DNA of 63,995 nucleotides, the filler included, from Basidiobolus ranarum (lineage: Eukaryota): NCBI GenBank assembly GCA_040143965.1. It is 3 parts of 3 records of this genome, joined end to end, with 100 filler letters (N's around TTAATTAATTAA, not from the genome) between each part and the next. Parts side by side here need not be neighbours in the genome. Positions count along the whole stretch, not along the records: positions 45,042 to 63,995 come from JASJQH010000263.1; 2 more parts are not named here. One strand, written 5' to 3'. The notes under the pieces are model-generated. The model made no database searches, was not told the DNA's origin, and saw nothing but the letters and a program-made list of their open reading frames with translations. Below, piece by piece: positions 10,602 through 63,369 of this stretch; position 1 is the first letter of the stretch; each line of letters opens with the position of its first letter. The position numbers and the translations under genes were made by a program.

Positions 10602-13600
10602 ATGTCACATTCTTGGAAGAATTGTTATTTTTCCCCAAGAAGTTCTAGTTTATTAGTTATACTCGCCTTTTATACCCTTCCGAGTTTGGCACAAAGTAGT
10701 CAGACCGTACTTGACTTTTCTTCTCTCTCTCAGTTAAGCATCGCTGGCCAATTCAATGGCATCTCTACGTATTCCCCCAACAGCAATGTTTCTCGACTTA
10801 ACCCCAATGTAGATTCTCTTATCCGCAAAACCAAGAATACCCTTGAACTAGTAGGATATACCTCAGTTGGAGGGAGTATAAACGCCATGTGTAATATGCC
10901 ATCTAAGCAAGGAGGAGGCGATGTTGATTTACAAGCGCAGATTTTTGTTGCTGGAAATTTCACCCATATTGGTGGAGTAGAGGTCAACAATATCGCTTTG
11001 TATGACCCAAGCACTAGGCTCTTCTCTCCATTAGTAAAGGGTTTAGATGGCCCTATTTATGACTTATACTGCGATGCTAGTCGAAATATAGTTTATGTTG
11101 GCGGTGCCTTTACTGGCCCAGTTCCAGTCAATATTTCGGATAAGTATGGATTACTACAGACCTTTGGTGGCTCTATAGCAATGTGGTCCAATGGAAATTG
11201 GACGGGCTTTGGTTTCAAAGGATTAAATGGCCCAGTATATACCATTGGAGCATCCAACACATCCAGCAGTATATTTTTTGGAGGCAATTTTAATTCCACA
11301 GCTGATGGTGCTCAAAATATGGCGCCAAATATACAAGAAGTTAATCTTATCAATGCCACGGTTAGTAGATCAATATTAATCCTTCTATGAAGACTCCTTC
11401 TTTTCTCTTTTGTAGTATATAATGGCAACGAATTTATTGACTGAAACTCTCTATTATAGATATCTGGTGGAAATTCAGCAAGTACAACCGGGTTCTCCAA
11501 TCCAAAGAATGTCATTTGTAGCGGAGATTCGGACACTGTAAATAATATTTGGTTAATGCGTGATAACATGCCTGGATATTGGTGGGCACAGTTCTCTACC
11601 CCAATTACTCCAAGTTTACTTCGTATTAAAAATACCAACTACGAGGGAAGAGGCACAAAAACATTTCGGTAAATTCCATAAACCTAGTACATCTTGTTTC
11701 TATACCGTCAAATTCTTATTCGCTCTATTTGTCACTAGGCTGTTCAGTTTTCCTGGCAATCTTATTATCCCTCTTTCATACTATGACCCCAACACGCGAA
11801 AGACAGTTACTTGTTCTGACGAATGTCCTCTAAATCATGACCCTAGTCTGCCATTTCAAGATTTTCGCATTATTCAGGGTGACAAACCCACCACTCTTAG
11901 TGGTATTAATATCGATATTTTGAGCTGGTATGGGGCCGGAGGAGGGTTTGGGAAAATCCAATTATATCAAAGTGGTATGTACTTTGAATTCTATCTAATG
12001 GCTGCTTGCTTTTTTACTGATCGGTTTGATTTGCAGAGATTGTCGTCCATGCCATCAATGAGTATAACAATCCCGCGTGCGCTTCCAGTTCACAACCCAT
12101 CAAGTCCAGTGTTTCGCTTACTGGAAGTTGGGAGAGACAAACAGAGCCAGACTCTTCCAAATCTATCCTCTCTTATACTGTGAAAAATAGCAAGGACAAC
12201 AAGGCCTCCATAACGTATACTCCTTTCATTCCTGAGTCTGGTTATTATGAAATCTGGGCATCTATTCCAGGGTGTTATGACGATGATTGTGAGGACAGAA
12301 TATCCGTTGACTTTTCATTGACTCTAACAAAGTCAGCCAAACAATCAGTAACAAACACAATACCCCAAAACAACAACTTCGATAATGTCGTTCCGATTTA
12401 TATGGGATATGTCACAGCTTCTTCAGCCAACTTCCAACCCAAAGTAGTCGCAACAATCTCCAAGAAGAGTAAAATCAAAACTGGGAATGTATTCGTTGCC
12501 GATGCCATTCAGTTTGTGAAGCTCAACTCCCTTTATAACCTCAATGGTGTGGTAGAGTATTTTCCCGACTCTGCCTCCATTATTGAAGGAATACCCATTC
12601 GAGCATTACAAAAGCCATTACCAGTGAACTCTGTGGTCAAGTCGATTATTCCTACTAACACCTCCGTCTTCATTGGTGGTGACTTCCGAGGAGTTGACAA
12701 ACTTGAATTTGCCAATATTGTCAAGTATAATCGTAACGCTTTGGTTCCATTTACAGGCGGTTATCCTAGAGGGCCCGTCAACTCTATGACTCTGATTAAT
12801 AACGAGTTGATAATTGGTGGTGATTTTGATGGTTTAATAGGAAACTCAAAATTGCCAGCCCGCAATATAGCCAGTTATAATATCATCAACGACAAATGGT
12901 CACCAGTTGGTTATGGGGTAAATGACCAAGTTAAAAAGTTAGTTCCTGCTGGTTCGGAAGCTGTTCAAATAATTGGTGATTTTAACGTAGTGTACGGAAA
13001 CAACACCCCTTTCAACCCTGATAGATTTTCAACTGGCTTTACTTCCTGGAACTTGACATCTAAATCTTGGGCCAATCCAGTATACGTTGCAGGCCATGCT
13101 CACTCTTCCATTGTATTTACTTCGCAAAATTCCTCTGCTGAAACCTCTCGCACCAATACCTTTTATTTGGCTGGAGCATTCTCTTCCGCTGCTGCAATTC
13201 AAGCCCCTGGATTTATCACACTCGACTCCCGTGGTGATTTTGAACAGCTTGGTACTGGTCCTGAATCTGGTGCAGTGAGTACAACTGTCAATTGTGGGAC
13301 TTATTACTTGACCAATGATAAAGAAAATGGTCAAAATATGAGCTATTCAATCGTTGGTGGAAACTTTCAGTCCACAGGTATTCGGAACGTCGCCATCTTT
13401 GATCAGGGTGTATGGAAAGGTATTGGAACTGGTGTTAGCGGTGAAGTTTATAGTTTACATGTCGCCGAAAGTCAACTATTTATTGGAGGTCTGTCGAACA
13501 ACACATCAACACCACCATTCAAAGGGTTCTCCATCTGGGATTTCAAAAACAATAGTTTTACCGATGTTCCTTCACTTGGATCCTCATCATCTCGTGATGC

Positions 13601-15128
13601 CAAGGATGACGGGCTGACTAAAGTCAATGTTATCCGCCAACGTCATGGAACTTCCAATGTCATAGTTTCTGGATGGTTTAAACGTGCAGGCTCTTTGGAG
13701 TGTAATAATATATGCCTCTGGGATACAAAGGATAAGCAGTGGGTATCCCTTTCTTCTGGAGTTGAAGGAGAAGTGACCGACATGATTGTTACCAATAGCG
13801 ACATCATTGCTGTAGGTAACTTCGTATTATCGTCAGGTCAAGGTTATTTGGCGAATTATGATTTTGATAAATCTGCATGGAAGCGTATCGAACCCAAGGG
13901 TGATGAAGATACTCTACCTGGTGCTGCACTATCTATTATTCATGATTCAGGCAATAACATATACTATGTCGCTGGACAAAACGATAAAGAAGAATGCTAC
14001 ATGAGAAAATGGGACGGAACTAGATTTACCCCATTGCCTGTCAGTCCTCTTCCTAGCAGCAAAATCTCTCGGATGAGTATCGTTCCAACCAAGTCTGTCT
14101 CAAATGCCAACAATCAAGTTGTTGTCAAAATTGCCGGCGAATCTGAACCCAGCGCCGGATCCGCGTTAATGGTCGTTGGATCACTTGTCTTTGAAAAGTT
14201 TGGAAATGTAAGCGCTGCGCTTTTCAATGGTGAAGAATGGATACCAGTTCTTGTTTCCTCTCAACGCGATGGATCACCTGGTATAATTAAGTCGGCTTTT
14301 ACCAGAAGTATCATCACATTTACAACCAAGGACCATCTTCCGTTACCATTGGTTATTTTAGTTTCTGTCGCTTCCTCCCTCGGTCTTGTCTTCTTCATTA
14401 TGTTGATTGGTTTAGGTTTAATTTATTTGAAGAAAAAAAGAAGAGCCGCTAAATACCCTCATCCCAATGCCTTGTATGCTAAGAAACCTTATATGAGAGA
14501 AAGCGCAGCAATTACTAGTGTGGCCTCTGCGGATAGTCGGGCAATATCAGACTACTCTGATCAGTATAGATCCCAAGCCCCTGGAACCAGCACATCTGCC
14601 ATGGAAAAGAGTATGAATGAGTCATCGATTGCACGTACTGGAGCTCTAGCTACCGCTGGTCTAGGAGCAGGAATCTCAGCAGCCCAAGGCGGTAGACCAC
14701 ACTCTGGTGTGTCTGAAAAGCATGCCTCTGCTTCGCCGACACTAGATGCCTCTATAATGTCTTCTCCAGAACGCTACACGATGCTGTCAGAAGGCAAGAT
14801 AGCGGATGGAATGGATACTGGAGCAGTTATTACTCCAGACCGGTACCAAGTGTACTATGCCAAGTTCCCCTTCAACGCTCGAGAACATGGAGAACTAGGG
14901 TTCCAAGCCGGTGACAAAATTTATGTTATCGACAATACAGATGATATATGGTGGATGGGCATTATCGATCATGGTATGTATATTCTTCGGCATTGATATC
15001 TTAACCATTACTAACTTCCTTTACAAATAACAGGCGATGGAGGCCAACTATCGCAAGGTGTATTCCCTGCCAGCTATGTGGTGGATAGACCATCTTCAAC
15101 ATCTACCACCTGGAACACAATGGCATGA
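10602..15128 (+). CDS. RAX2: Rax2-family polarity landmark protein (signal peptide, beta-propeller ectodomain, TM, C-terminal SH3); 4 introns
   Basis: Signal peptide; repeated GG-x-F beta-strand motifs; AGSLECNNICLWD Rax2 motif; TM LPLVILVSVASSLGLVFFIMLIGLGLIYL-KKKRR; SH3 YYAKFPFNAREHGELGFQAGDKIYVI..WWMG..GVFPASYV. Confidence 0.85.
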
Positions 15129-21810: not shown

Positions 21811-22446
21811 CTATTTATGGCTTCGTGAATTCATAATCTCCCAACCGATGTATATTTCCACCCTTTCCATTTAATAATAAATAAAATTCATTGAATTGAG
21901 CGTCGATTTTTGTGTAAGTGAATGATATGCTCAATAGTTCACAAAGTATACTTTAAAGTAAGAGTTTATGAAAATAACTTGGAAAGAATATACGCTGTAT
22001 TCCTATAACCCACGCTTTTTGGTGATGAAACGTGAGCCTCAAACTAACAGCTATTTACCATCTGACAAGTCTGTCAAAAGACGATTTTGCGAATGACCCA
22101 AGGCCACGACCAGTAGCGAAAATATCTGGTACACAGCACAAGAGAAACCTGCCTGTCCTTTAACTTAGACCAGGTTCAAGTACTTATAGCGAGAGTAGAC
22201 AGATCCGAAAGATGTAATAATATGGGATTGTTGAGGATTTGTATTGAGAAGGTTCGATTAAATATCAATGTTTAAAATAATAAGAATGGTTTTTTTGAAT
22301 GCAAAAGAAATTCGTACACATTACGCACACCATGTTTACCACTCTCGGTGAAATGTACAAGAATGTGCACAAAGAGTAGTTTTCATCGGACTACTTCGAT
22401 ATTGAGAAGAGAAGTTAGTACTATTGGATATACACTCTCAATAACT

Positions 22447-22546
22447 NNNNNNNNNNNNNNNNNNNNNNNNNNNNNNNNNNNNNNNNNNNNTTAATTAATT
22501 AANNNNNNNNNNNNNNNNNNNNNNNNNNNNNNNNNNNNNNNNNNNN
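22447..22546. other. Artificial contig linker (44 N + TTAATTAATTAA + 44 N)
   Basis: TTAATTAATTAA gives stops in all six frames and is flanked by symmetric N runs. Confidence 0.97.
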
Positions 22547-23720
22547 CCCCTCTTTTCATACTTACCCTTACCAAAACATCTATACCCTAACCCTCCGTTC
22601 TTTTTTAACCTGGAGTAAAACTTTGGTTTCAGCTGGTTTTCACTTGTTGGATAATTAAGCTTTATTCAACATCATAGTTAACTTTAGTTATGATAAATAT
22701 ATCAGAAACAGAAAGCAACATATCTATAGCCCCTATATTCTAAATATGAATATCTCTATATCTATATAGCAAGTATGTCATATTACTCCCACTTATCTAT
22801 TATATCTTATTACACAAACTCCTGAATATCTCAAACAATTGATTTACTTTTCTACTATATGAGTCACCATATACTACTAAGAATAAAGTAACTAAAACAC
22901 ACTATAATAAGTTGCTTCTAATACCCTAAGTCTACCCCCATTATGTCCAACAGCATTATTTTCTTCTCCTACAACAGTGTATCAAACTCCTTTTTCTTGT
23001 AGCAGATTTTTTGTTTTAATTTTCCAAACTTGATAATTGGTTCTATCCAATTTTTCAGAAGAAGGAAAAGTTCCTGAAGTTTGAGAAGTAGACATTACAA
23101 GAGTGCAAGCTTGGGGCTCATAGCCTGTTAGAGTGTTTGGGAGCCTGTAGGAGGTGGTTTAGAGAATTAGAGAAATTGGTGGCTTTCACTTATTGATTTT
23201 TTGGGTAGAAAGTTGACATTTATAGTTTTATCAAGATATAAGCAAACTAGTATGTATAATGTGCTAAGGAAGGTCCCAGAAAATTGTGTGCAAAGTTTGG
23301 GGCTTCTAGCACAGGTTTGAAAAATCTATAAATCTGATAACTTCTGAGTTTGTAAAAATATTCCAAGTAAATTCTAATTGAGAATCATGGGTAAGATCTT
23401 AGTGAGATATAAGATAACTAAATACTAAGCTATATATGACTATAAAGGTGTTTAGGCAATGCTAATTTCAACAGCCTCTAATACACAGACTCTACCCCCA
23501 TTATGTCAAGATCCTCCAACAGTCACAGGAGCATGTATGCCAAGTCTGGGGCTTCTAGCACAAGTTTGAAAATTCTATGCATCTGAGAACATTTTAGGTT
23601 GGTAAAATATTCTAAATTCCTCTGGAGAATAGTGAAAGATGTCTTAGTTCTAAAAAATGTGTAAGTAGACCTGCAGAAATTTTTGGCAGTAATTTCAAAT
23701 TCAGTCAGGATTATCTTCTG
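22547..23720. repeat. AT-rich, CpG-free modular repeat block (probable transposon-derived or satellite-like family)
   Basis: 22785-22953 matches 45042-45220; TCTACCCCCATTATGTCAAGATCCTCCAACAG recurs at 23491-23522; GCxAAGTyTGGGGCTTCTAGCACArGTTTGAAAA occurs near 23290 and 23539, with a shorter variant near 23104. Confidence 0.8.
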
Positions 23721-24584
23721 CAATGAGCAACATGCTCTCCTTGACAAACCATATTTTGAACTCTGAGGATTATTCTCTGAGGCTGTATCATAGCTACTTG
23801 GGAGAACTCAGGGATCAATATTGGCAAATTTACATGCCTTTCCTGAAAAGTATACCTCGTGGTGTTATTGCATGGTACAATGATTGGATAGGTCACTACT
23901 TTGATTTCTATTTCCTCCATTTCCTATAACCAATATTTATATCATCGCCATTGACTCTTTATGAGTACCCGCTCGTCCACAATAACACAGCCATCACCAT
24001 TCCCCCTTTACCAAGACAAAAGAACCAACTCTCAATTTACCATCCCTAACACTCCAATTCCTGATGCTTTCGAAGCTGCAGCTGAGTTGTATTCCATACA
24101 CATCCACTAAGTTACCACCACAATGACTGCCTGCCTCACTGCCAGTGTAGCTGACAATCTACCTCAGTTGTTGAGCATCAAATAGCTGACATATACGTCT
24201 CAGGATCCTGACATACAGATTGGCTCAAGCTTGTATGGAACATAGGGAAGAACCTCCTTGTTTCTTGAAATTTTTATCGATATTGTACGGGATAAACATG
24301 AGAGAATAAAGGAAGAGAAGTTCATATGGTGAGGACTCACGAATGAGAATATTGGTCAATATAGATATGGCAAACAAGATTGCGGACAAACGTTGTACAA
24401 GTAATAAAGTGGCGGAGGGAAGTAAAGGAAATCAATTATTATGAAGAATGGATATTGGAATGCAATAATAATAAAATATGAATGGAACAATGGATTGTTT
24501 TGAAATGTAAGAGAAAATCATAGCTTGATCATTATTATTATTACTATTATGAACTATAGAAAACTGTGCTGCCCTCCAAACTGC

Positions 24585-26056
24585 TTAAGGCTGGAATTCA
24601 TCCACCACTTTCTGGAAACTTGCTACACTCTTTGTACACTCCCGTCTTAAATTCTCTCCCTTTGGTGTGCCCCATGCTCCGCTAGCAACCATGTTACGGA
24701 AGTAACGGAAGCAAGCTTCTTCACGGAAGTTTTCATAGATTTTCTTGTTGAGATTACGCTAGTACACAGGATTGAAAGTTAATATAAAAGGAACTATTTG
24801 GCTTAGATAACTAAAATCCTCACTTACCTCAATCTTGCGCGTGGTTAGGGGATAGTCATGATTCTGGTGAATGATGTAGTCGTTAGGAAGGATCCAGTAT
24901 TCAACGCCAGACAAGTAAATCTCATAGAGACAAGCAGCCTTATTTCCGCCATAACCGATGAACCTCTCGTTACACCATGGCACTCCGTCCTTCTTAACAA
25001 TCACATATGGCTCATAGCTATAGTTGTAATCGGTGACCATGTAAGGTTCCTCACTTTGGTACCAGTTGGTGTAGTTGGTAGAGCCATGACCTCGCTGCCA
25101 GCTTTTGTGGAACATATCTATTCTTTCATCCTGTACCAATTCCAATAAATCTTCCTTGGTTTTGGGAAATACTGCGGCATCCCTTCCTTCGTCAAGAACA
25201 TTATACTCGAAGGCAGGTAGAACAATGGCAGCCTGACCGGCTTCTAAACGCTCCATCAACTCCGGGTAGGAATCGAGATTCTTACGGAAATCTGTGCAGA
25301 GATAAAAATCGATATCGAGCAGGAGAAAATAGTCAGTACGACTGAAGAAGCGAGCAACATTTCTCCAGTAATTGAATTGTCTCTCGTATTTGTCAACAAT
25401 CAAATGGACGTCCACATATTGCTTCATCAAGGGATTGGTTTCGTACATTTGAGCCAATCGATCCAGAATCCCATCTTTTCTGTTGTCATCCGATACATGT
25501 AATGCCACTGAAATGGGGCCTAGATAAGATGAACATTTTAGTTAGTGACTCTGGTCTAAGTCTAAGCGCTGTGTTAGTAGAGCTTACCTTTGTAGTTGCG
25601 AACCAATTTTTCAAACACATGGAAGCGATCGGAAGTAATCAGGGTAGCAACAGTGATTTCCTTCTTGGGAGGGGCAGGATCCATTTTGTAATAATACGGA
25701 ATCAAGTTGGTGGGCTGCATGCTTTCAGAAAAGAGTTTGGAGAAAAGATACTGCTGCTCCACTGGCTCTGTCAAAACGAACAAAACAGAAAAGGGAACTG
25801 GTTAGCTCCTGGGAAACAGAAATGAAGGTGGAGCTAGTGTAAACTTACCCTCTGAGTTCGGCCAGTTATGAGGACGAGGAGTCTTGGCCATTGGAAGTTG
25901 GCTGAGATGGCCAGCAGGGTTTCTGGGCGTCACTGTATGCCCTTTCTGACTGTTAGGATCATAAAAGCGATGTAAAATATACACGACTGAGACACAGAGG
26001 TATCCCAAGAATATGTACTTGGCGATCCGGGAAAAGGAGTAGTCCACTCTCATCAT
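24585..26056 (-). CDS. Glycosyltransferase family 49 (LARGE/B4GAT1-like), type II membrane protein; 3 introns
   Basis: N-terminal TM; ITVATLITSDRF..YKGPISVALH; RQFNYWRNVARFFSRTDYFLLLDIDF (DxD); SYEPYVIV..PWCNERFIGYGGNKAAC. Confidence 0.85.
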
Positions 26057-38365: not shown

Positions 38366-39478
38366 AATATAGAGTATAGAGTAAAAGAGATTTAGCATGT
38401 GGGAGGGTAATTTTTATAGGGAAATCAACTCAATTGTGATTGTAATGAATACGATCTGAAAGCCACGGTAAGCTAGCGAAATAGACAGTCATGAAACTTC
38501 AAAAAAGAACATTGTGCTAGTTTATAGTCGAGTCATGGCCTCGTGTTACTTACGTAGCACGATTCTTCATGATACCTACCAAGGTGAATGTAGATATCTG
38601 GAGCCTATTCATGGACTTACTTAATCATGTGTCAATCCAGAGATCACTTGACAAGGAGTCAGCGAATGGAGTTTGCGCATAAATGCTCGTAGCCAATCCT
38701 TACTCTTCTTCGTGAGGTTGCAGTTTCAGAGCTGTGTGTTATAAGCCTCAGCATCACTGGAGGAAACATAGCCAGGACTCCGCTCTCCAGGAGAATAACG
38801 GGCTCAGGGCCCCTAACTTGCTACGTAGCATGTCATAAATAATGAGGCCCTCTTTTCATTTCGCAGCCTTATTCATTTATCAAGATTACGTTAAAGGCTG
38901 AGAAGTGGGATTCAATCATGAAGCCCTGCAACTAGCCAAGCCTGCATTGATTAGATATCACATGTAGACTCTTAGCGCGTCTGAATGCTCCATTGAGACG
39001 TCTCTACATGGCCATCATAGCGACTTCAAGCCATACAGCTCAATCTCAATCCATCAAGCCAGAAGTCATGCCGATATTATAATCCATTCCACAATCACCT
39101 GTTGGGGTTCAAGCGTACACATGATTTGGAGATTGAGATCATATACTCCAAAACTATGCGTTTGCTGTGGAAACTACTGGAAAAGGATGATGCTATTTGA
39201 TTTGACAGAATTCGATGTAAATTAAATTAAAATCTCGCACCTTCAAAAAATCCAGGCATTTTTAAAATAATATATTCAGGAATCTATTTGTTAACAGCTA
39301 GGAACTTTACAAATTAGAGTATTGGCTTTCTGTAGACTTCAGAGTTTATGTTTGAAGCAGGAAGAAACTTTGGAGAATATCCTTGCTTTTCGACAAGTTC
39401 GTCTTATCTGTTTTCATACACATACACACATCTATGCTTACGTGCCCTTTATTAAGTACTTCAATAGGTCATTAAGCT

Positions 39479-41734
39479 ATGGGTGGAAACTTAACGAAAC
39501 TGATTGAACAAGAAAAAGGTTCAAAGACACTCAATCTGGGTCAAAAAAACATAAGTGAAATCCCACCTCAGATCGAGACACTCCGTGACAGTTTAGAAAG
39601 GTAAAATCTTTCATCTTAGTCGGTAGTCAATGGTGCAGTGGACTAACTTCGCATCTAGACTGGGTTTGGGCCAAAATTTTTTGAATTCTCTACCATTAGA
39701 AATAGCAAAGTTACAGAATTTACGCTATATCAATCTAAGAGCAAATCTCTTCAAAGAATTCCCTTTAGTGGTAGGTTTCCCGCTCTATTTCTGGTTGCTG
39801 CCAAATTATTTATACCCGAATTTTGTTAGCTATGTGAACTACCACGTCTCGAAATTCTGGATTTGAGTAAAAACAAAATTCGAATATTACCTAATGAACT
39901 TGGCAAAATCAAAACACTGAAGGTATTCATCAAGTTCTTCTACTGTTGGCTAGTGTACATATACTCATTTGCCCTGCAATTGATATTTTAGGTTTTGAGT
40001 GTAGCACGTAATCGTATTAAAGAGCTACCATTCTGCATAGGGCGCATGGAAGACCTACAAGTCTTAAAAATAGAGCATAACCCCATCACTTTTCCACCCC
40101 GACATATAGCTCAATCTAATCACAACAGTGGAGAATGGTTGGAGCACTTGAAGGAGTATCTACGGGAACACTCAGGTTTGTCCATGCTAGAGCCTTACGT
40201 TGTTGTCCATCATTAATAGAATTTATCTGAAACAGACACCCCAGACTATGCTGAGGATGTGGTAGAAGAGAACAGTACCGACGACGGCTCTTTAATGGAA
40301 CACTACGCTCGCGATCAATACGATTTGCGAACCAGGCGAATGCCTTCTACCGAGTCTTTAAGTTCATATATGCGGTCTGACAAACTTTCAATCACACAGG
40401 AAAATCTCGCTGAGCTTAAAATATTGATGGAGAAACGTAGTTCTGACCGCCGGCACCAGTTCGGAAGATCATTCTCAATGCCCAGAGGGATTGTCAGTGA
40501 GTATTCCGATAATAACGGCAGTCTGCCTAGTATCTCACTCTCACGCCATTCTCGAGGGATCTCTTTGGATTCAATTAGCTCGGTAGATACACAGACATCA
40601 GTTGATGGGAATTGGAATTGGGACACTTACTTCCTACACGCTAATCCAATTCCCAAGAACATCTCAAACGTCAATGGAAAATGGTTGGCAATACACCGAA
40701 GTATTTTGTTTATGATGATTCAAATATATTGTGCAGTGCAACAGCCCTTAGCGCTTACTCTGGACATTCACACCACCGCCATATTTTCGGGTTTGTTGTC
40801 GGACATCTCAAACGGAATGACGTTATACGTACAGATCTTAGAAAAGTTTGAACGAGGATTACATCAACTACGACCTCAGGACTTCTCCGGCTTCCACCAC
40901 GACTTAGTCCAAGCGTGTCTTAAAAACATTAACTCTTTTCAGAAATTAGTGCGCGCCGTATATTTAAACATAAAGCCCCTGACAAGAAACAGCGACATAC
41001 GAATTACGAAGAATCTATTGGTAGTGATACACACCGGAACCATTGAGATTAAAAATGCTTATGAAGCTCTAAGCCAATTTAGTGCGGAGTTGTCCACGAC
41101 TTCATTAGTGATCGGGCAGAACCGATTTTCTAAAGTTAAACGAGGTAGCGTTGTATTGCGTGATATTGAAGTTAATCCCGAGCTATACACCTTAGCTGAA
41201 AACACCACTGCTGCCGCCACGAGAGTAATGCTTTTGCTGACAGAATCCCTTGAAAGACTCAACCTCGGAGACGATGATACCGATAAATTAAATCGACAAA
41301 AGGATTGTTTTTCCTCCAAGATAGAGGAGCTTCTATCGCATTTACAAACTGCGGAGAGCGCTACCAAATCTCTAAACCGCTCACTTAATATCAAGAACAC
41401 CAGTAACGAAGATTCGTTATTCAATCGGCGCTTTCTTGAAGACATTGACAATTTTGTGAAGGTTCATTTGGGTTTCTGTAGCACAGGTTTTTTTCACACA
41501 TCTAATGCACTTTCCACATAGGCTGTCATTACCATGGCCTCTATCACCCGAGCCTCTTTGACCGAGCTACATTTGAACAAGTCCGTTACTTCCGGGCTTC
41601 AAGCACTTGTTCGTAGTACAAGAGAGTTAGCTCTTTTGTTTGCTAAATCACGACCCAAATTAACGACAGACGATAACAGCGAAATGAGTGATGTGCACAT
41701 CGAGGTCTCATCCGTATGTACGTTAGGGAATTAA
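39479..41734 (+). CDS. SOG2: Sog2-like RAM-network leucine-rich-repeat protein; 5 introns
   Basis: N-terminal LRRs (LRYINLRANLFKEFP, LEILDLSKNKI, LQVLKIEHNPITFPP); SOG2-domain-like DIRITKNLLVVIHTGTIEIKNAYEAL. Confidence 0.8.
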
Positions 41735-46156: not shown

Positions 46157-47098
46157 CTACGTATAAGCTGGAGGTGAGGTGGGAGTGCTAAGTGAATACA
46201 GGGGAAGGGTATCTTCTTCTTTGTTACTTATGTGGATGGGTGTCCTCACCAAAATATACTTCTTCATCCCAGAGCCATTGAGTAAGCATATTTGTATCTC
46301 AATTAAATGTGAGAGACTCAACATATCGCTCTTACAATCCGTTTGTATACTAGAGTCAATCAAGATTTGAATGGAGTTCGAATGCACTGTTGGCTTATAT
46401 TTCCTGAGGTCTTCGTATTTAATGGTTTCAATAAGCGGTCGCTTAGTGGATTTGATATCACCATTCTTCGTACGATACCTGACCGCCTCAACTATACAGG
46501 CCTGAATGGATTCAATTTTAGAAGTGGTGTTCAACAATTTGGTTCCAATGTTGAGGTTGACCTCCTGTCCCGGTTGGTAAGAGTTCGAATTGGAATAGAT
46601 CGTAAATCCTAGTTCCCCATGAATTTCCCCGAATTTCAATAATTCTTGGGAATTGATATCATCGAAATCAATAGAATGAACTCTGGATATATATACGGAG
46701 CGTTCATGTAGCAATTCTGACTGAAGTGAGAACCCTTCTCGTTTGGCAACCGCTTTGAGGCTGTACTGAATACACCCGTTACGTGAGTTGACTGATTCGG
46801 GTAGGTCGCCGGTAAGTGGTAACTCAAAATGATACATGTAGGTACCACTATGAAATGATTTGGGATTCTGGGTCACTTCCAAAAATTCTACATTATGTTG
46901 TAAAAATATTTCGGTGGTTTCTGAAGGTACCGAGGCAACACCTTGAAGGCTTAGCTGAATGGAAGTGATCTTGTTGATACCCCGCAGACTAAGTAATAGG
47001 TAGCCACGAAGCGCATGGCCAGATGCGGTATCTCTGCAACCACGAAATACGATCTGTTCATTGAACAAGTGAATATGGAGATTGCTATTGTACCACAT
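46157..47098 (-). CDS. Alpha-arrestin (ART-like ubiquitin-ligase adaptor), intronless
   Basis: LRGYLLL..ITSIQLSLQG; GTYMYHFELPLTGDLPESV..IQYSLKAVAKR arrestin-N motif; C-terminal LPLY and PPAY motifs. Confidence 0.85.
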   Translation of the reverse strand: MWYNSNLHIHLFNEQIVFRGCRDTASGHALRGYLLLSLRGINKITSIQLSLQGVASVPSETTEIFLQHNVEFLEVTQNPKSFHSGTYMYHFELPLTGDLPESVNSRNGCIQYSLKAVAKREGFSLQSELLHERSVYISRVHSIDFDDINSQELLKFGEIHGELGFTIYSNSNSYQPGQEVNLNIGTKLLNTTSKIESIQACIVEAVRYRTKNGDIKSTKRPLIETIKYEDLRKYKPTVHSNSIQILIDSSIQTDCKSDMLSLSHLIEIQICLLNGSGMKKYILVRTPIHISNKEEDTLPLYSLSTPTSPPAYT

Positions 47099-49558
47099 TA
47101 TCGTATATGTTCGCTTAGAGGCCTTCGAGTGATTTTATAGTCAACACAGTCCTAGTCAGTTGGTGGAAAGTGCTATTTGCATCAATGGAGCCATCGGAAC
47201 CAATCGCTCTCTAACTACAGACAATTCCAGGGTTCACTTGGCGAAATCCTTGGTAAAATTGTTTACTTAATTTAAATCCTGGATTGATATATCACTATGG
47301 TAAAGTCCAGAGAAATTCGTCAGTGAATCCTATCCAATGGTGTCTAGGTTACTTACCAGAAAAAGGTATGAAACTTCCAGTGATGGCAGCCAAATTGCCA
47401 AACCAATCCTGAGAAGATTTATGCAGAAAAGACGGGCTTATTACAATCAAACTCAACCACTCATTAAGTAAGAACTTGGATAGAAAAGCAAATCATCGAA
47501 TCACAGCCAACATATCTATTGCCTTTCTCATTCAAAAAGAGTTATCGAGCATTCATGCAAACCGTCGGTCATGATAGAAGTTGTACATATCAATGCGGAG
47601 ATGCCCTACTTTAGAAGTAGACTCTCTGGTACACTCGAAGTGCTTTGGATTGCTCTAAATTCATCACTACTATGTATCAATTCTCCCAATCATATTGCAT
47701 CTCACATCAGTATTACTTGGCAACTATCTAATGTTATCCTTATGATGTTGTGTAGGTCCGCATTGGATTACTACTTGTATTTATCAGTTTAAGCCGAGCT
47801 ATTTGAAGTCCATTGTGATTGGTATTCCCAGGTTAGTGATAAGTAGATGAATATTTTTTGCATCGTTTGCCAGCAGTGATGCAGATTCAGTGGAACATAG
47901 CAAATCCACCTCCGCTTTGGAAATACACTACCAGTCTCCTGGCATTCATCGGATTGGTTGAGGATCAAGAGAAATCAACATCCATTGTCAACTATGCTGA
48001 CATGACAAACGCTAGTGAGATCATAGTGAATCATATTTTTCTCTGATTTGGCTAAGGTACAAGAGCCATTTGACACGAATATACTGTGCGCACACAATCG
48101 ACAGTAATAGATTTCAGCAACACGGTATGCTAATTCAAGCAGCACTGTGTTTGAGGTGGCTCATCCATGAAGTCTTCCAGGAGTAAAGGTAACTTGACAG
48201 GAGCTTTAATTAGAACGAATTGAGTAATTTTCATATTGTGGTTGACTCGGGGGTAATCGAATTGGTAGTTTGAGTGAATGATTTGCGATTTCAATGGTTC
48301 TCTTAATCATCGGTTCCACCCACATCACACGCTGCTTCCAATAGAAGTCCAACTATGTCAAGAAATTGAATGTTTTCTAGGTTCGAACCCATTCATTGTG
48401 GAATGGCATCTAACATTACGGTGTTCCGACTGGAATTCTGATCATTTCTCTTGTGACTAGAGAATAGGCTACATGGCACTACTGTCAAGCTTGATCACTT
48501 AGACTATTGACCGAAGCTGACGCAAGTGATATTTATTTTTATAACTAAATAGGGGTGCAAGAGGTCGTTTGGTCTTCACTGATATCCTCCATAGAGTTGA
48601 CTCATAGCCCCTACCCTTACTGCATGCACCTTGTGAGCATACCTTATACTTACAAGAGTTACTTGAATCAGTATGTTCTGAATAAAGACAAGGGAAATCT
48701 GAACTGTCTTAGGTCATAGGAAAGAAATTTAATATACGACCAGTTAAATTTGAAATTAGCTAATACAATACAGCAAATCCGAACTCTATTATGAAAGAAT
48801 ACAGGCATTCACTAAGTTCTGCGGATTGGCAGTTGACTGGTAAAAATACGGCTGAGTCTCACGCCACGCAGATTTATGTGAAAAACCAGCTAGCAAGTCA
48901 TAGTCGGGTTTAAGTACGTCTGACCTGACTTGATGAAACATTTATTGTAGAGATAAGTTGCTCAATGGTAGATTAATTTAACGTCTTCACTGGTTTACAA
49001 CCGCTATATATCAACCCAATAGAACCTACCTGAAGACTACTGTCATGGACAAAAAATAATTTGATCCTAACTTACTCTCATGATCGAAAGCTACTCTGGC
49101 TAATGGATCGCCACCAGTCCAAATGAAACCAAATCAAAAATCTATTCGCAAAATACATTGATGGGAATGTTGCTTCCATGAGTATATGCATTCAGGTTAA
49201 TCCTGATTCCTAAGTTGAGCGCATGCACTACCCATTACATACTTGTTGTTGGTGCTGATTCATTCAACATGCCAATATACTTGCTATTGTTCATCGGTTA
49301 GCGGTGTCCGTTACCAAATACTCTTGGCTGGTTGTTTAATTCATCTTTTGTGTTATTCAAATGAGCGATGATTTAAAAGTTTGAGACGAAAGACAAGTAT
49401 ACCGACGTACAAGTAGCTTGATGACAACATACAATGAGCAATTATAAACATATGATCTGATTTGAATTTACATAGACAGTGGATATTGTACAGGTAGAAT
49501 GGTGGGGAGAATATTGCAGAATCAATAATTTCGGAAAGCAGGTGAAGCCAAGCCAAAC

Positions 49559-50527
49559 TTAGGAGAAGTACAGAGGTGAATGGGATGAGCTAAAGTAACT
49601 AGGAGGCTCTGCAATGGCGGCACAATATGTTGGCAGTGTTTCCTCAGAGCCAACAATTTCATGTGGTAAAAATTTCAATGGAGTCCGTACCACCACAAAT
49701 CGTTTGGAGCCATCGCTATCAGAGAATGTAAAGGTGAGGTTCAGTTCATGTGAGATAGAAACATACTCATTCTCACAGTCCGGATGAATATATTCTTTAG
49801 ATGAGTTGGTTGGGAAAGTGACTTCTTCGTACCATTGTCGATGTCCTATAGGTAACCAGCTAGTGGATACCTCATGCAATAATGTCTTGACAAAGTCTTT
49901 ACTTCCGTTCACCTTTCTGGTGATATTCTCAACTAGACCGATTCGAATACGATGTACTTGATTCCCATACCCCAGCGACTGAGTGCCAATATGTAAGGGT
50001 ACATAGTCCCCTGGTTTGTAACTGGAGGAGGGTGAAAATATGTAAAATCCAAACTGAGAGTGAATCTCCCCCACTTTATATAGTGCGTGGATCTCTTCCT
50101 GAACTCCCATGACCCTTTCGACAACAAGCTCCCTCTCCGTATGTAAATCCCCCCAATAACCGATGCGCTTTGCTATTGCGTTGAACATATATTTGATACT
50201 TGTTGTGCTGGAAGTCATACTTTCGGGTAAATCACCCAGCAGAGGAAATTCAAAATGATATTCGTAACGTCCGGGTAGAAACTCCTTCACGTCGTGATCT
50301 TCTTCCAAGAAAGACACGTGATGGCGGAGGAAATGTTCTTCAACAGCTGGCTCAACTCCTGAGCACCATCCTTTCAAACTCAAGTCAATTGAAGAAATCT
50401 TCGCCGGATAGCGTATATGAAGTAGTACATGGCCATGAATCACTTGACCTGATGAGGAGTCGCTGTCACCGCTCAGTACTACCTTTTCATTCTCGAGATG
50501 AATGTGAAGCGAATTGAAAGACCACAT
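49559..50527 (-). CDS. Alpha-arrestin paralog, intronless
   Basis: IHGHVLL..ISSIDLSLKG; PGRYEYHFEFPLLGDLPESM..IKYMFNAIAKR; LPTY and PPSY motifs; start set at MWSFNSLHIHL by alignment with its paralog. Confidence 0.85.
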   Translation of the reverse strand: MWSFNSLHIHLENEKVVLSGDSDSSSGQVIHGHVLLHIRYPAKISSIDLSLKGWCSGVEPAVEEHFLRHHVSFLEEDHDVKEFLPGRYEYHFEFPLLGDLPESMTSSTTSIKYMFNAIAKRIGYWGDLHTERELVVERVMGVQEEIHALYKVGEIHSQFGFYIFSPSSSYKPGDYVPLHIGTQSLGYGNQVHRIRIGLVENITRKVNGSKDFVKTLLHEVSTSWLPIGHRQWYEEVTFPTNSSKEYIHPDCENEYVSISHELNLTFTFSDSDGSKRFVVVRTPLKFLPHEIVGSEETLPTYCAAIAEPPSYFSSSHSPLYFS

Positions 50528-52591
50528 CGACACGGTTGCGCTGGCAATATTCCAAAATTCGTTGCTAAATCTAGTCACTCAGAGGAGCCATGCTGGCTTT
50601 ATGTGTCTACAAGAATGGATTCGGATCCAGATCAAGTTGATTTAACTCATTATGTACTCGGTCATCTCTGTATGTCTTAGCTAACTGCAATATCTTTCAT
50701 ATTATGTGTCCTCAGACATCTACCCAAACCCTTTAGGTGCTGAGCTGTCTTTAAACTTGTATCTAGTGAGGAGTAGCCAGTTTATTTCATCTTGACCCCT
50801 TTTTAATGAACAACTCCAAATTAGTGCATGATTCGGTGATCTCCGCTTTTTCTTCACAAATGACCCACACATGAACTCACAGGAGTTTCCACTGTACATA
50901 GAATCTTTCAATGGCCCGATTTAGAAAGGATTTACAAGCAGTTGATGCTAGATATGGAGTGGTAAAGCGAGTGCTAGATAAGAAATGATTGACTAACATT
51001 CAGGCAACTCAATGCTACTTAGTATGTTCTCATGTATACTTGGCTATGCATAAAGTGAATCCCTTATGTCACTTTTAAAATTAATCTATGTGAAGAGGAA
51101 AATATTCTTCCTTGAGACTATCAACAAAAACCACCTCCAAGACACATCTTTGGTAGATTTGTTACTACTGTATAAGAAGACGAAGCCGTATTTAGAAATT
51201 GACATTGGTAGAGGGGACAGCGCATGGAGAAGCATGGCCTCAGTTAGTGCATGATAAGTTGCACCCATTTTGTACTAATATATAATCGGTTTTTGTTAAC
51301 CTCTTAGCACATGACACCCTAGGATCCCATTTTGTTGTGCTGGCAGACCATACCGTAAGTCAAAAAGTCAGAAACCCATGCATCCCGTGGATATGTGTCA
51401 TTTTTCCAACACTCTCTGAACCATAAAAATGGTAGGACCTCTTCTCCAACCATTAAGTTATCCAGTAGTTATGTTTTTCTTGTCGAAGTGGTTGTAAAAA
51501 ACTGGGATAATATTTCAAAGCATAGAGAAAGAGAGAAGTATTCTCAGCAGCCATTTTACAAGGTCTGGCTCTTTGTGCTTGACTATGATACTTACGGTTT
51601 GCAGTCATTTAAATTTCAGGTTGGACGTTTCAGTGATTGAAATCCTGGGTTTCTATGATTTATATGCAATCATCCCTTTGTGCTACATCAGCCAACTGCC
51701 GCTCAAACTCTTAATATTTGGTGTTCTCTCTGAATCTGCTTTAATTCGCTTGTAAGCATCACATAGTAAAATCACCTCCTTGTTTTGTTACATGCCTCCT
51801 CATAGTTTGATCTAGCTTATGAAGGTGGAGCGCTCTTCAGATCTTTAATCCAGTTGATTCGATGTAGGCTCATTTGAGAAAGGTTGAACTTAATAAAGGA
51901 GGTTGTTTTAAGTATCATAGAAACGACAATCCATGGATTTTGGAATATAGTTTGGGGTACAAGCATAAGGAGAAGAAAGAAAATGAAAATACCACATATA
52001 AGTAATATTCCATAATTCCTTTGTGACGCACATCAAACATTCAGTAGATTCTCATTCTTTACAAGGACTTACGGTTATTCTTCATTTCATAATCAATTTC
52101 TCGCCTTTCTTCGTAGTTTGTTCTAGTAACGTTCCTTTCGTTTGATGGATTGGATATGGCGACATTGAGTTTCTTATTGTATTGCATACCAAGCATCTTT
52201 TGTTACTGCCAATACAGACAGGGAAATGGTTTCAGTGTTAATTGGTTTAATAGTAAGCTATTGGATCTATAGTGCTATGCGTTTGACAGGGAGTTTCTTT
52301 CCTTATAACCAAACGGCTATCAGAAAGTTACCTAGAGTATGATTTGCTGGAAAGGTATTTCAAGAGGTACCGTGGAAGAATGAGGTTCTGAGTGTCTCAT
52401 AATCGGGAGCATTTATTACTAATACTGGTGCAAGTAAATTAAAGCAAAGCCTAAGAATATATCCATATTGAGTATTTACAAAAGTATAAGGGAGAGAAAT
52501 AAATGAGCAACAATGTCCTGTATAAGTCTTGTGTTGTAAATTACAAAATAAACAAGATAATGGAGAAGTGAGGTCTTATAAAGTATCAGCC

Positions 52592-54518
52592 CTAGCTCTG
52601 TTGGATCTTTTCGTGTAGAGAAATGACTGCGGTGTAGGTGCCAAAACCACAGCTTGTAAATCCAATCAGGACAATGAAAAATTCTGATAGGTTCCTATAA
52701 AAGCCAGTTGGACCACCAAACAATCGACGATTGAAAACTATTGGTAGGACCTGGGATGAGGGATGTTAGCACATTTGCAGTGTATTTGCCATCATAAACG
52801 ACCAATATGACATCGATTTCTACTTACGAAAATCAACATAGAGTTAGAGACAGCTCCCAAAAGTGTGATTACCTCAGCAAAGTACGGTAAAACGATGGCA
52901 ACCAGTGCGGAAGAAGATAATAAGATGGTACGGAATGCTACTCGACTTAAAAGTTCTCCTGCACATGACATATGAATTCTATCGATTTTCAATAGGTGTT
53001 CAACCTTTATATTCGAGGGAGATTTAGTACCATTCAAGGATTCATCTGCATTTATGCTTGCACATACCTCTAATGCCAAAGATGCTAGAAGAATGGGGTT
53101 TGTGAGAAGTACGTGAGCGGTGATTACAATAATAGCAAAGGTCAAACATGGCCCTATTACGAAATTCGCAACAAATGAGTGAATACAGAAAATCAATTGG
53201 AAGCGATAGAATTACACTTACCGGCTGGGAGAGTGTTCAGGATAGGTGATTCCACTTTATCCCCATAAACATAATAGCCAACAAACGCGGTTACAATATA
53301 CATCGCAAACACAGTAATTAGGGCCTTCTTTAAAACCTTGGGCCAGTCTTGTCGGTTACTCATACTATGTTCGACATGAGGAAAGACACTATTACCACCA
53401 AATGAGAATCCCACAGCTGCCAATACTGAAGGAAAGGCCAGTAAGTTGTAGTATTCATGCTTCGCGTCTGCATAGTTGGGAAGATCAATGAATCCTGTTA
53501 CTAGTACGATGAAGACCATAATTACGGTAGCAAAAGCACCAAAAAAGCTATGGAAATTTCCTTTAGTATATAAAATGTACAAAAAGCATTCGGTAAGACT
53601 CTACCTTAGCACTGCTACTTCTTTTAAAGTTTTCATAAATACAAATGGCGGCCATATCATAACGGTGCAAACGACAATCCTACGCAAAAACAAGATGAGA
53701 AGGATTGCACAATATATATGCTCGTACTTAAAAAGCGATGACAGGAAATTCAAACATACCAATGGGTAACCTTCCAAGTGGGCAAAATATCCTCAAAGAG
53801 TTGGCGAAAATTGGCAGAAGCAAGGATGAAAAATAGCGCAGAGGATCCAAACATCATAGTACTAGTGAAAAAGTTCACCAACAAGCGGCCATATTTTCCA
53901 AAAGCTACTTGGCCGACTTCGGAAAGACTGTTGAGACGTTTACTATTCATGCAAGGTTACTTCGCTGTCCGATAAACGAGATAAATCATGAAATAAACTA
54001 ACCCATCAACGTATAGACATTTGATTAATAGGATACCACTATAGTAGGCGATACAGGAGCACAAGGCAATACTACCCAGTCCGATCCATCCACCTTGTTT
54101 TAGACAGAATGGAAGCTGAAGGTATGTTGGAGTTAAGAAGTGTATAGTATATGAGGACTAATGGACTTTTTCATTGAGAAATTGAAGAAAAAGGATATGA
54201 CACCAGAACCAGCCATTAAGCAACTATTGAATTGGAATTTGTAAGTATCAAGAGCGACATCAAGGTTCAATATATATAAATACATACACTAGATTAAAGT
54301 AGGCTCCCCAATTGGAGCCATGATGGCCCTCATCAAATAATTCGAGTTCACCTTCAGCCTCGATCGCTTTGTCAGCTGTAAGGGAAAATGTCAGTGATTG
54401 GGTTTTACAAGTTTTTCCAGTTCATCATACCAATGCTGTCTACTCCTCCGTACACTCTTGGTGCCATTTCTGATTTCAAAGGGTGTCCATCCGTGCTATC
54501 GGTAGTGGGCCAACTCAT
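52592..54518 (-). CDS. Aa_trans (AAAP/Avt1-like) amino-acid transporter; 8 introns including one AT-AC
   Basis: AYFNLVCLMAGSGVLQLPFCLKQGGWIG; EVGQVAFGKYG; MKTLKEVAVLS; FSFGGNSVFPHVEHSM; VGYYVYGDKVESPILNTLP; LPYFAEVITLLGA. Confidence 0.92.
54122..54198 (-). other. U12-type (minor spliceosome) AT-AC intron, 77 nt
   Basis: 5' splice site ATATCCTTTTT; branch site CTTCTTAAC about 10 nt before the terminal AC; removal restores GSGV|LQLPF in frame. Confidence 0.92.
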
Positions 54519-57128
54519 GACAAACACGCAGGGTTTTAAGATTGGTTGGGAAACAAATATATAAGATGCTGGAAGGTCTAAGTCTATCAAGGAATGGGTG
54601 TGTCCTACTTCAATGACTAGGATAAAATGCGGCTTGCAAGAAAAGGTAACTGACAATGGATTCTTCGATGCAGAGAAGGATTACTCTAAGGCGTACAGCA
54701 ATATGTAGTAAATTTTAAAGTTGGGAATGGATCCATCGGATGAGTTGGTTTTATACTCCCATAGCTTACAGGGATGTTTGTACATGGATCGCATTGGCTG
54801 TACAGTCATATTAATATGTGGGTGTACTAGTTCGCATGATATATGGAAGAGTAATGTAAGGTCACATCGAGGGTTGTATACAGTATGCAAATAAATCGAT
54901 CTATTTTAGAAGGTTTCTCTCCAGCGATTATATCGATCTTTTATGAAACATACTTGGCATGCATTGTTTTTACCTTGGGTATGACTCGTAGGATATCAGG
55001 AACAGGTCAACGTGATAGAAGTAACACAGCATAAAGCCAAATGATTCCAGAAAATCTACATCATTGGGATTAGTAATTCGAAATGTATAAATAACAATCA
55101 CCGCACTCAAAGCACGCAATGGCTCATCCTACTAAATTTACTTCCGTGGAACTCCTGACTGCGTGACAGCATTCATATTGTATTGCCATATTTGGGCGCT
55201 GGCCAGATTAAAATCTGAATCGATGAAAGCAGCCACAAAGTGCTTGTCATTTAGGGGTTGGTAGATACTAATCAGGACATTTACGAAGTTTCATGAGATC
55301 CATCACATGATACAGAATCATGCTACTAATGAATGGCATCCCAAACACTAATAGCCCACTGCTTGTAAAATTGATTAGTAACCGCTGGCTAATCAATACG
55401 CCATTATCAATGAAAGTGTCACAAGAGATGAATTGTTCTACAGATCACACGACTGAGAAGCTGCCGCTTTACCATATTGAAACAAGTGAGGCTTATCAAG
55501 ATTTCCACTAAAGAGGGAGCACCATCTCACATATCACGCAAGTCCGCATATTTGCATACATTGCAGTGATAGCACTGGGTAGTGGCAATCCGTTTGATTC
55601 TTTTTGCAGACGAGCACACTGACTGGAATCAACTTCAGAGGTAGCAAGTGGTATGGCCGTTGGAATATACGTCGGAAACTGGCATCTGTATCCACGTGCC
55701 GATTCTTGGTTAATTTTACGGTAGCGTTGATTTGAAAGGCATCGGAAATTACCGTGGCGAGATTTGATCACGCATCGAGTGAATCCATCAGTTCACGGCG
55801 TATCAAACTCGTAGGTCAAATACTTCTCGGCTGTTGATACATGGAACTTTCCTAATAACTGGGTTTCTACATGTAGTGGTACTTTACTTTGTTGTCAGGA
55901 TCTTTTGAGCAGCTTGCTATCTAGGATTCTCACTTGCATGACTCGAGTTATATCAGTAATAGTCAGCATGATGGAAGTAATACAGAGTTTTCTGGATACT
56001 GTTAAATTAAGTAAACTAGCCGGAGATCTATTGGGAAATTGATCCTGGCTTTTTTATTGGTTCCGCTCATTTTTGTGGTATCCCCCAATGTATGTATCGC
56101 TTCGGATTGATCCATATGTTCTGATTCTGGAATATCGTCGGATTTTAGGCAATAAACATTGCTTCAACATCTATGGCTATGTAAGTAACTGACGTGGAGA
56201 AATGCGACAACTGATCGTGAGATTGGACTACCCACTGACTATAAAGCCTCGTCTTTTCAATATCGACAAAGAGACAAGACGAGCGACTTTTGTAATCTCC
56301 CGGTCAAATTCTCTAATGCTACCTATCTGACCCTCTTGCTGTGACTGAGGACCAATGTTCTATTGTTAGCTCTTTACATGGGTCTATTTGTCTTTTATTT
56401 AAAATCAATTGGTAGTTCACTTTCAGACAGCAAAACAAACATTTCTAATAATATATTATCAGGGGTAATTCACAAACAATGCATCATCACTGGGGCAGAG
56501 TAATAAGATGCAGTAGTGAGCCTGAGTGAGCATTCACGATACCAGAAGGGACAGAACCTGAATATTTGTTAATGAGTTGTAAGTGGGCTTTTTCGTACTC
56601 TCCATTCCTGCTCGGTTCAAATGATATTCATTTCTCAAGAAGTTCTTGCACTTCCTAATACTACCTTTTATGGCGGTACTCTAAGACTTTCTAGTCATGA
56701 ACCAACTGCTTTTGACAGCTGCTCATAACCAAAATAGTAAACTACTAACCACGTTGCAAATAAACGAATAAAAATATCTAGCATGACGAAATTTACCAAC
56801 TAGAGGTAAGATCGAATAAGAGTTAAAATAAGGTAGAAAATTAATATCCTCCATGTTGCACTAGCAATATACCCATCACTAGCTTTAGTTCGATCCTCCT
56901 ACCAAACAGTTTCCATTCCTTGACCAATGCATATTAGTGTGGAATTGAGATTTGACCAAATAATGTGCTGGTGCATTCATCAACTCAAAGTCGTGAAGGA
57001 ATATGATTTTAATACGTCTTCCAAAACTCTGGCAAATAATCATTAATTCAAAATGCGCTATATATATAACTTTCCACACTTGGCAGTGCAGATGATGATG
57101 GTAAAATTGAGTTATTAGCGGCTTCAAT

Positions 57129-61294: not shown

Positions 61295-63369
61295 ATGACC
61301 ACTATCACACAAGAACTCCACACGTCCAAGGTATTTCACAGCGGTGAAGGTAAGAATGTATCTGCTTTGAGCTAGTAAATCTCCATAGATGTCATTATCT
61401 GACATAAGGATTCTTTTGATTCCTAGTTACTATCCAAACACTGGCAGGGGTGCGAGAGAATGCGGAAGAAACGACAGCGTTTATTCGTTCCTTCATGCCT
61501 CAGCAGCACCAATCCTTTTATGGCTCGTTGCCTTATGCTCTTGGTAGTAAACATATTCGGCTCTGATATGTCACTAATGATCTAAACACATGAATTCTTC
61601 CTCAGTCTCAACCTTAGATAGTAAAGGTCGGCCCTGGGCTTCATTGATCTATGGAGAGCCAGGCTTCATTGCAGCACTATCGGACAACAGCATAAGAATT
61701 AGAATTCAGGTTATGCATTGGGATCCTCTGGAAGATAATCTCATCCACCAGACTCGAGAACAAGTAAATGGTGGGCTCCCCTTTGGGATGCTAGGCATTG
61801 AGTTACATACACGTCGTCGTAACCGTGTAAATGGTCACGTCGTGAGCATTAAGCCAGACGTTACCAGTGGCTACTACGACTTGACTGTCGACGTGGATCA
61901 AAGTTATGGTAATTACTGTGAGAGTCCTATGGTATTTGTTGTAGCGGACTAATTAGTATCGTGTAGGGAACTGCCCAAAATATATTCAAACTCGTCAATG
62001 GTCAAAGAGGCAATCAAATCTGGAAGATTCCTCTCAAGATCGTGTCAATTTTCTGGAGCGACCAACCGAAACGTTTCCGGAAGATGTTCGTGGAATTATT
62101 AAGAACGCTGATTCATTTTATATAGCCAGTCGCTTTATTGACTCGGCCACTCCAAAAAACGCATCTGGTTTAGATGTCAGTCATCGTGGTGGCCATCGTG
62201 GGTTTGTACGTTTACTGCCGGACAACAAATCCTTTGTGTGGCCGGACTATAAGGGTAATAATATGTTCATGACATTGGGTAATATTCTGAAAGATTCCCG
62301 TGCCGGTGTCCTGTTTCTTAACTACGATGAAAACTCAGTTGTGTACATCACTGGGGTAGCCAAAGTGATTTTCAACGATGAAGCTCGAAGGTTGATTCCT
62401 GGCATGACCAGAGTTATAATGTTTGCGGCCGAGGAATTAATATTTGCTCGGAATACTTTACCATATCAATTTCAATATCAGGAGGACTCCCCATTCAATC
62501 CACCCGTACGGTATACCTCTGAAGGGAATGGTGATCGTGGCGCAATAGAATCTATCAATTGGGCAACACTAGTAGGAGTTAAGCGATTATCGTTCGATAC
62601 TTCTTCATTTACCTTTGAAACCAGTCAGCCAGTTACTTATCTTCCTGGACAGTATGCAACTTTTGACTTTTCAAATGAACCTGGTGTTGGCCAATTGAAA
62701 GAATCTATTCTGCAGCATGAAGGGGACTTGAAACAAGCCATATTGAATGATGACCTAGTACGAACTTGGACAATCTCCTCTACTCCTCCTCTAAGGAATT
62801 TCAACATAGCAGAGCCGGTGAGCCAAATAACAATTACGGTGAAGCAAAAGCCAGGGGGTTTGATATCGACTTTTCTGCATCAACATTATTCGAATGTGAC
62901 ATCCAGAAACATGCTGAGAGTGCCCTTAGTAGGTGTGGGAGGTACCTTCACTGTATTTCAACCCATCCACACTCGTTCAGCCCGCCCGAAGCTTCTGTTT
63001 TTAGCAGCTGGTGTTGGAATAACTCCTTTTCTGTCGATGTTACCAGCCCTTCGTAAATATGACGTTCATCTTGTGGTTACTGCTCGTCGTGAAGACGATC
63101 TTTACCTTAATATCATTCAGCCATTTTCAGAATTTGTAAAGATTACCGCACTACTAACTAGGGAGAAGCCTAGCACAGATTCCCGTGGTTCTTTATCCAT
63201 ACATAGTGACAGATTGAATGCCCTTAATCTAGCACATTATGTGGAAGATGTGAAGAATCGTGAGGTGTATATTTGTGGTCCAAACGCATTCATGGAGGTT
63301 ATGATGCAGGCCTGTGCACAATTTGGGATTAATGCCGATGATATCCATTCAGAGGAATTTTCGTTTTAG
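61295..63369 (+). CDS. Pyridoxamine-5'-phosphate-oxidase-like split barrels fused to an FNR-type FAD/NAD(P)-binding reductase; 3 introns
   Basis: FHSGE..FMPQQHQSFY..LDSKGRPWAS..GEPGF; TRRRNRVNG; GNCPKYIQTR; DVSHRGGHRGFV; PDYKGNNMFMTLGNI; YLPGQY; RTWTISS; AAGVGITPFLSML; YICGPNAFM; HSEEFSF. Confidence 0.9.

Follow-up and report, generated by a model that had tools for sequence, protein, structure and literature searches.

The segment 54198-54122 on the minus strand of a stretch of Basidiobolus ranarum DNA (the entire analysed stretch, 63,995 nt, is referred to as the window) is very probably a genuine intron of the U12-type AT-AC class and occupies the third of nine intron positions in a predicted amino-acid transporter gene of the Aa_trans family. 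This assignment is carried by three direct observations, on the splice signals, on the reading frame and on the fit to homologous proteins. Its core is the agreement of two independent criteria, namely a U12-type donor site and protein homology, at one and the same position.

The exon model of the transporter gene was built by hand from the sequence with the guidance of tblastn, and the exons were subsequently joined by script and translated. Searching the window with the relatives of the protein by tblastn identifies one copy of the gene. The homologous proteins to which reference is made below include P0001 (B. meristosporus K493DRAFT_387366), P0002 (B. ranarum K7432_003479), P0003 (B. meristosporus K493DRAFT_393001) and P0007 from Phycomyces. 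The gene model consists of the following features:

52592-54518, minus strand: coding region of the predicted Aa_trans amino-acid transporter gene, with 10 exons, 9 introns and 441 codons plus stop
54431-54518, minus strand: exon 1, with the ATG at 54518-54516 and an N-terminus that aligns with P0001, P0002 and P0003
54288-54375, minus strand: exon 2, from sequence, tblastn and the assembled model
54224-54287, minus strand: intron 2, U2-type GT-AG, 64 nt (GTATGT...AATAG), from sequence and model
54199-54223, minus strand: exon 3, a 25-nt micro-exon in which the final base of a Val codon is followed by C-L-M-A-G-S-G-V
54122-54198, minus strand: intron 3, the putative U12-type AT-AC intron, 77 nt, phase 0, top-ranked of 35 in-frame solutions
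54003-54121, minus strand: exon 4, beginning with L-Q-L-P-F, Pfam Aa_trans 26.8 bits
53760-53942, minus strand: exon 5, from sequence, tblastn and the assembled model
53605-53679, minus strand: exon 6, from sequence and the assembled model
53222-53547, minus strand: exon 7, the largest exon, Pfam Aa_trans 59.3 bits, 88% identity to P0001
53068-53153, minus strand: exon 8, from sequence and the assembled model
52828-53004, minus strand: exon 9, from sequence and model, Aa_trans 21.7 bits
52751-52827, minus strand: intron 9, phase 0, from the assembled model
52592-52750, minus strand: exon 10, with the stop codon TAG at 52594-52592, from sequence and the assembled model

Joined together, the ten exons amount to 1326 nt, equivalent to 441 codons and the stop codon. 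The eight introns other than intron 3 are all of the GT-AG type with a length of 55-80 nt; their donors read GTATG, GTAAG, GTTAG or GTAGA, and the TCCTT extension of the donor is found in none of the eight. The sequence-only reading had described the exon 54199-54223 as 25 nt long and preceded by a U2 intron, which is right, with the 64-nt intron at 54287-54224 directly upstream, such that the micro-exon sits between a major intron on its upstream and a minor intron on its downstream side. Two exons score above the Aa_trans (PF01490) cut-off of 25.6 bits on their own, exon 4, which by itself aligns to profile positions 22-59, and exon 7; exon 9 stays below this cut-off. P0002, 81% identical to the model, reaches 207.4 bits, with an alignment that covers profile positions 2-409. 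As judged from these profile matches, the gene is one that encodes an Aa_trans (PF01490) transporter. The family takes in the fungal vacuolar Avt transporters as well as animal SLC32, SLC36 and SLC38, and the likeness to these transporters consists in the match of exons of the window to PF01490 and in the splice, which restores the conserved motif G-x-G-x-L-x-L-P.

The boundaries of intron 3 can be read to the base. In minus-strand orientation, exon 3 closes with the codons GGT GTC at 54199, and ATATCCTTTTT begins at 54198; at the other end, the intron terminates with ...CTTCTTAACTCCAACATAC at 54122, followed by CTT CAG CTT CCA from 54121. Both descriptions had been given in the sequence-only reading and are exact, and its statement that removal of these 77 nt restores GSGV-LQLPF holds equally, with the intron in phase 0 and the motif rejoined. 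Two internal signals accompany the AT-AC termini:

54190-54198, minus strand: U12-type 5' splice site ATATCCTTT, identical at 9 of 9 positions to (A/G)TATCCTTT and the sole such match in the window
54132-54139, minus strand: branch-site motif TTCTTAAC, identical at 7 of 8 positions to TCCTTAAC, with one mismatch

The hallmarks of U12 introns have been described as the donor (A/G)UAUCCUUU, the branch site UCCUUAAC and the lack of a polypyrimidine tract, with a distance between branch site and 3' end of 10-20 nt and an optimum at 11-13 nt (PMC8199999). The presumed branch A of intron 3, at 54133, precedes the final base of the intron (54122) by 11 nt and thus falls within this optimum. On the other hand, 13 of the last 20 nt of intron 3 are pyrimidines as compared to 8-14 in the eight GT-AG introns, and with this overlap the absence of a polypyrimidine tract does not discriminate between the two classes. 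The phase of the intron counts against the U12 assignment, as phase 0 is given as the rarest phase of minor introns, with a mean share of about 22% (PMC10639083).

Evidence also comes from the combination of the reading frame with the homologous proteins. All in-frame and stop-free single introns of at least 30 nt with GT-AG, GC-AG or AT-AC termini were enumerated from 54223 to 54003 and ranked by the similarity score of the resulting product to five homologues; among the 35 solutions obtained, the AT-AC solution 54198-54122 ranks first with a score of 200.0. The model can be aligned over its whole length with P0002 (356 identical residues in 442 columns), and the junction of exon 3 and exon 4 is free of gaps against five full-length homologues, P0002, P0003, P0004, P0005 and P0007. 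Retention of intron 3 stops translation after 88 residues, and skipping of the micro-exon, as read from the sequence, shifts the frame and leads to a TAA after 7 codons. Only the join of 54199 to 54121 yields a full-length member of the family without a gap at the junction.

Taken by themselves, the splice signals are not rarer than expected by chance in 64 kb. The donor RTATCCTTT is observed once in the window as compared to 1.86 expected occurrences, with at least one occurrence in 84 of 100 shuffles, and a looser composite, for which the donor, a branch motif and the 3' end have to fall into a span of 150 nt, is present in 72 of 200 shuffled windows. The expectation of a perfect donor per position, however, is approximately 1.86/(2 x 63,995) = 1.5e-5, and the sole perfect donor of the window falls exactly at the junction demanded by homology, which is a coincidence beyond chance. 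A loose scan of the window for U12-like elements delivered 17 combinations of donor, branch site and 3' end originating from 10 donor sites, of which two with a short span were inspected besides intron 3. The second AT-AC candidate at 39377-39509 on the plus strand (133 nt, ATATCCTTG...CTTAAC...AC) extends across the probable start codon (M-G-G-N...) of the LRR/SOG2-like gene downstream, and with the frame uninterrupted across its 3' end it was judged to be a chance match. The combination at 56844-56937 on the plus strand has no coding context and was likewise rejected.

An intron of the major type at the same place would be one alternative. The claim of the sequence-only reading that there is no GT-AG solution is wrong; the best 15 of the 35 enumerated solutions include two in-frame GT-AG introns, 54201-54116 (86 nt, score 176.6) and 54201-54158 (44 nt, score 175.6), which both score below the AT-AC solution and the shorter of which would insert unrelated residues. 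The longer one is possible due to the GTC codon before the intron and the CAG as the second codon after it:

54116-54201, minus strand: rejected alternative in-frame GT-AG intron, GTCATA...CTTCAG, 86 nt, which would delete V-L-Q

This intron is in frame and stop-free, and were it the real one, the protein would simply be devoid of V-L-Q as is P0001, an annotated relative with exactly this three-residue gap. Such a reading is nevertheless very improbable, as the donor GTCATA does not resemble any of the GT donors of the other eight introns, the score of 176.6 falls behind the 200.0 of the AT-AC form, and a U12 donor matching at 9 of 9 positions together with a well-placed branch site would have to be mere coincidence. 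In addition, the columns that would be deleted are conserved throughout the family. The model was aligned with 155 family proteins (P0001-P0007 and P0029-P0176, excluding P0008-P0028, which are related to another gene), and 129 of the 156 rows cover the junction; the V-L-Q columns are all filled in 124 of these 129 rows, and Leu occupies the middle one in 113 of the 129. Of the five gapped rows, four are devoid of the whole region, and P0001 alone displays the specific three-residue gap. This sole row aligns to the Aa_trans profile only from position 51, compared to position 2 for P0002.

The AT-AC intron itself could in principle be removed by the major, U2-dependent spliceosome, as are the rare U2-type AT-AC introns. 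Non-U12 AT-AC introns do exist, and counts of 'other AT-AC introns' are available for several species, with 31-32 in Phycomyces as one example (PMC2846911). In intron 3, however, the donor bears the U12 extension TATCCTTT in full and the distance of the branch motif to the 3' end is 11 nt, which makes removal by the major machinery exceedingly improbable. Major-type AT-AC introns possess donors that resemble ordinary GT donors. Equally, the transporter gene could be a silent or decaying copy, the segment of which is never spliced and owes its good fit to inheritance from a functional ancestor. The protein with the gene's own exon 7 is indeed absent from a collection of 5.8 billion proteins, in which the product of another ORF of the window, 12030-14996, is present with 100% identity. 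However, the frame is open in each of the 10 exons, the ends of the nine introns are all intact, the 441-aa product matches its relatives over the full length, as seen from the 356 of 442 columns identical to P0002, and the terminal branch of the transporter in the tree is short (0.11). Nothing indicates decay of the gene, and a silent copy is regarded as highly unlikely. A U12-type AT-AC intron at 54198-54122 remains the preferred reading.

The sister protein from B. meristosporus deserves consideration also with respect to gene annotation. P0001 is the closest relative of the protein encoded by the window, with 88% identity in exon 7, and in a tree of 11 rows the two proteins are sisters with a support of 93/98, which is under the star threshold of the tool. 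The annotation of P0001 is without exactly V-L-Q, the residues that the GT-AG form 54201-54116 removes. As read from the protein sequence, this gap suggests that a GT-AG model has been forced over the same AT-AC intron, which would consequently be common to both species. P0001 contains two further gaps in the same region and, with its Aa_trans alignment only from profile position 51, appears to be a poor model in general, which renders the V-L-Q gap weaker evidence for a forced GT-AG model. The absence of these three residues nonetheless lends support to the earlier claim that predictors restricted to GT-AG introns would mis-annotate the gene.

In B. ranarum itself, the search of the 5.8-billion-protein collection for a protein with the gene's own exon 7 gave a best match of 88% among proteins of 192-2000 aa and none among those of 59-189 aa, and the public protein sets of the species seem to lack the transporter gene or to leave it unannotated. 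A scan of metagenomes for relatives of exon 7 reduced 183 pattern matches to one locus (L001), which according to tblastn shares no more than a chance match of 13 residues, has a G+C content of 52% and is unrelated. An annotation artefact of another kind might be present in P0003, which has approximately 22 extra residues, between ...MLIFV and ...PIVFN, exactly at the position of intron 9 of the window (52827-52751); judged by its location, this extra stretch looks like an annotated read-through of the intron.

The host lineage provides the context in which a minor intron can be placed. For B. meristosporus, Larue and Roy (2023) reported 249 minor introns as identified by intronIC, 0.554% of its introns and the highest density among fungi (PMC10639083), and Olthof et al. 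(2024) listed 237 minor introns along with genes for U11, U12 and U6atac as well as a divergent U4atac candidate (PMC11347168). Among other early-diverging fungi, 205 minor introns have been counted in Rhizophagus irregularis, about 20 in Phycomyces blakesleeanus and about 4 in Rhizopus oryzae (PMC10639083; PMC2846911), minor introns in Rhizopus and Phycomyces having been known since 2006-2010 (PMC2846911). As reported in the same 2023 survey, convincing minor introns are absent from Ascomycota and Basidiomycota (PMC10639083), in line with the statement of the sequence-only reading that Dikarya are without a minor spliceosome. The present intron shares with the catalogued introns of B. meristosporus the genus, the intron class, the (A/G)TATCCTTT donor, a TCCTTAAC-like branch site near the 3' end and the AT-AC subtype, as well as a host lineage among the non-Dikarya fungi that retain minor snRNA genes; it differs in being located in B. 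ranarum DNA. With the minor introns of R. irregularis, Phycomyces and Rhizopus it has in common the same consensus signals and the occurrence outside of the Dikarya, with absence in Ascomycota and Basidiomycota. In one supplement file of the 2023 survey, neither K493DRAFT_387366 nor K493DRAFT_393001 of B. meristosporus appears with a per-intron entry (PMC10639083).

As Basidiobolus does not belong to the Dikarya and the genus is rich in minor introns, a minor intron is expected in this DNA and does not come as a surprise. With about 0.5% minor introns and, as a rough estimate, approximately a hundred introns per 64 kb, about one minor intron would be expected in the window, and one credible candidate has been found. 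That this fungus possesses a working minor spliceosome is deduced by analogy from the papers on the sister species B. meristosporus; an Rfam search of the 64-kb stretch gave 0 matches at the gathering thresholds and 0 at E values up to 1, and hence no snRNA.

The minor spliceosome would be expected to splice intron 3, and the transporter gene is presumably expressed. In the accepted scheme of minor splicing, ATATCCTTT would base-pair first with U11 and subsequently with U6atac, and TTCTTAAC would base-pair with U12; the lariat would arise from the A at 54133, and the exons would be joined from 54199 to 54121, linking G-S-G-V to L-Q-L-P-F in the conserved N-terminal motif of the transporter.

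With respect to its age, intron 3 might conceivably represent a recent gain specific to Basidiobolus and part of a genus-wide burst of minor-intron gain rather than an ancient relic, although this is considered unlikely. Among the hints to a recent gain, the reconstructed ancestral density of minor introns is low in Zoopagomycota despite B. meristosporus having the highest density in fungi, and phase 0 could mark younger minor introns (PMC10639083). Furthermore, the length of intron 3 resembles its GT-AG neighbours (77 nt versus 55-80 nt). None of these hints is decisive. Copies of the 77-nt intron, as imagined by a mobile 'introner', were searched for elsewhere in the window with only chance matches of at most 13 nt as the outcome. 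Should a recent gain nevertheless be true, it would be part of a burst of minor introns of a kind so far convincingly documented only in Physarum. A weaker reading than a recent gain is that the minor intron together with the 25-nt exon may gate the expression of the transporter, an idea based on the early stops in which intron retention and exon skipping, as predicted from the sequence, both end. The rate-limiting splicing switch put forward in the sequence-only reading is likewise speculative, and neutral processes have been argued to explain most of minor-intron evolution (PMC10639083).

The remainder of the window contains further genes. Just downstream of the transporter and on the same strand, two ORFs, 46157-47134 and 49559-50578 (both minus), match the N- and C-terminal arrestin domains of Pfam. 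Arrestin-related adaptors of yeast steer the endocytosis of amino-acid permeases, and by analogy the location of the arrestin-domain ORFs near a transporter may not be accidental. A Rax2-like gene with an SH3 domain extends over 10593-14996 on the plus strand; its ORF 12030-14996 (988 codons) matches B. ranarum K7432_005011 with 100% identity, which assigns the window to B. ranarum or a near-identical strain, a fungus outside the Dikarya. The ORF immediately upstream has a weak Rax2 match of 27.2 bits, below the cut-off of 28.8. Two ORFs look like ordinary genes, 24759-25541 on the minus strand with a match to Glyco_transf_49 (154.7 bits) and 61957-63369 on the plus strand with a match to an oxidoreductase NAD-binding domain (28.8 bits). 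The lowest G+C content of the window, 0.334 as compared to about 0.40 elsewhere, is observed at 22001-24000, and no tandem repeat was found there; a search for tandem repeats and tRNAs across the 64-kb stretch gave none.

Intron 3 is an ordinary further example in the fungal lineage already richest in minor introns, and by itself the transporter intron opens no new question. Its value is mainly practical and consists in the correction of gene models. A gene finder restricted to GT-AG introns would either lose the gene or deliver a protein without three conserved residues of the N-terminal motif, and since such models hide introns of this type, catalogues of minor introns that are based on annotation would undercount them in Basidiobolus.
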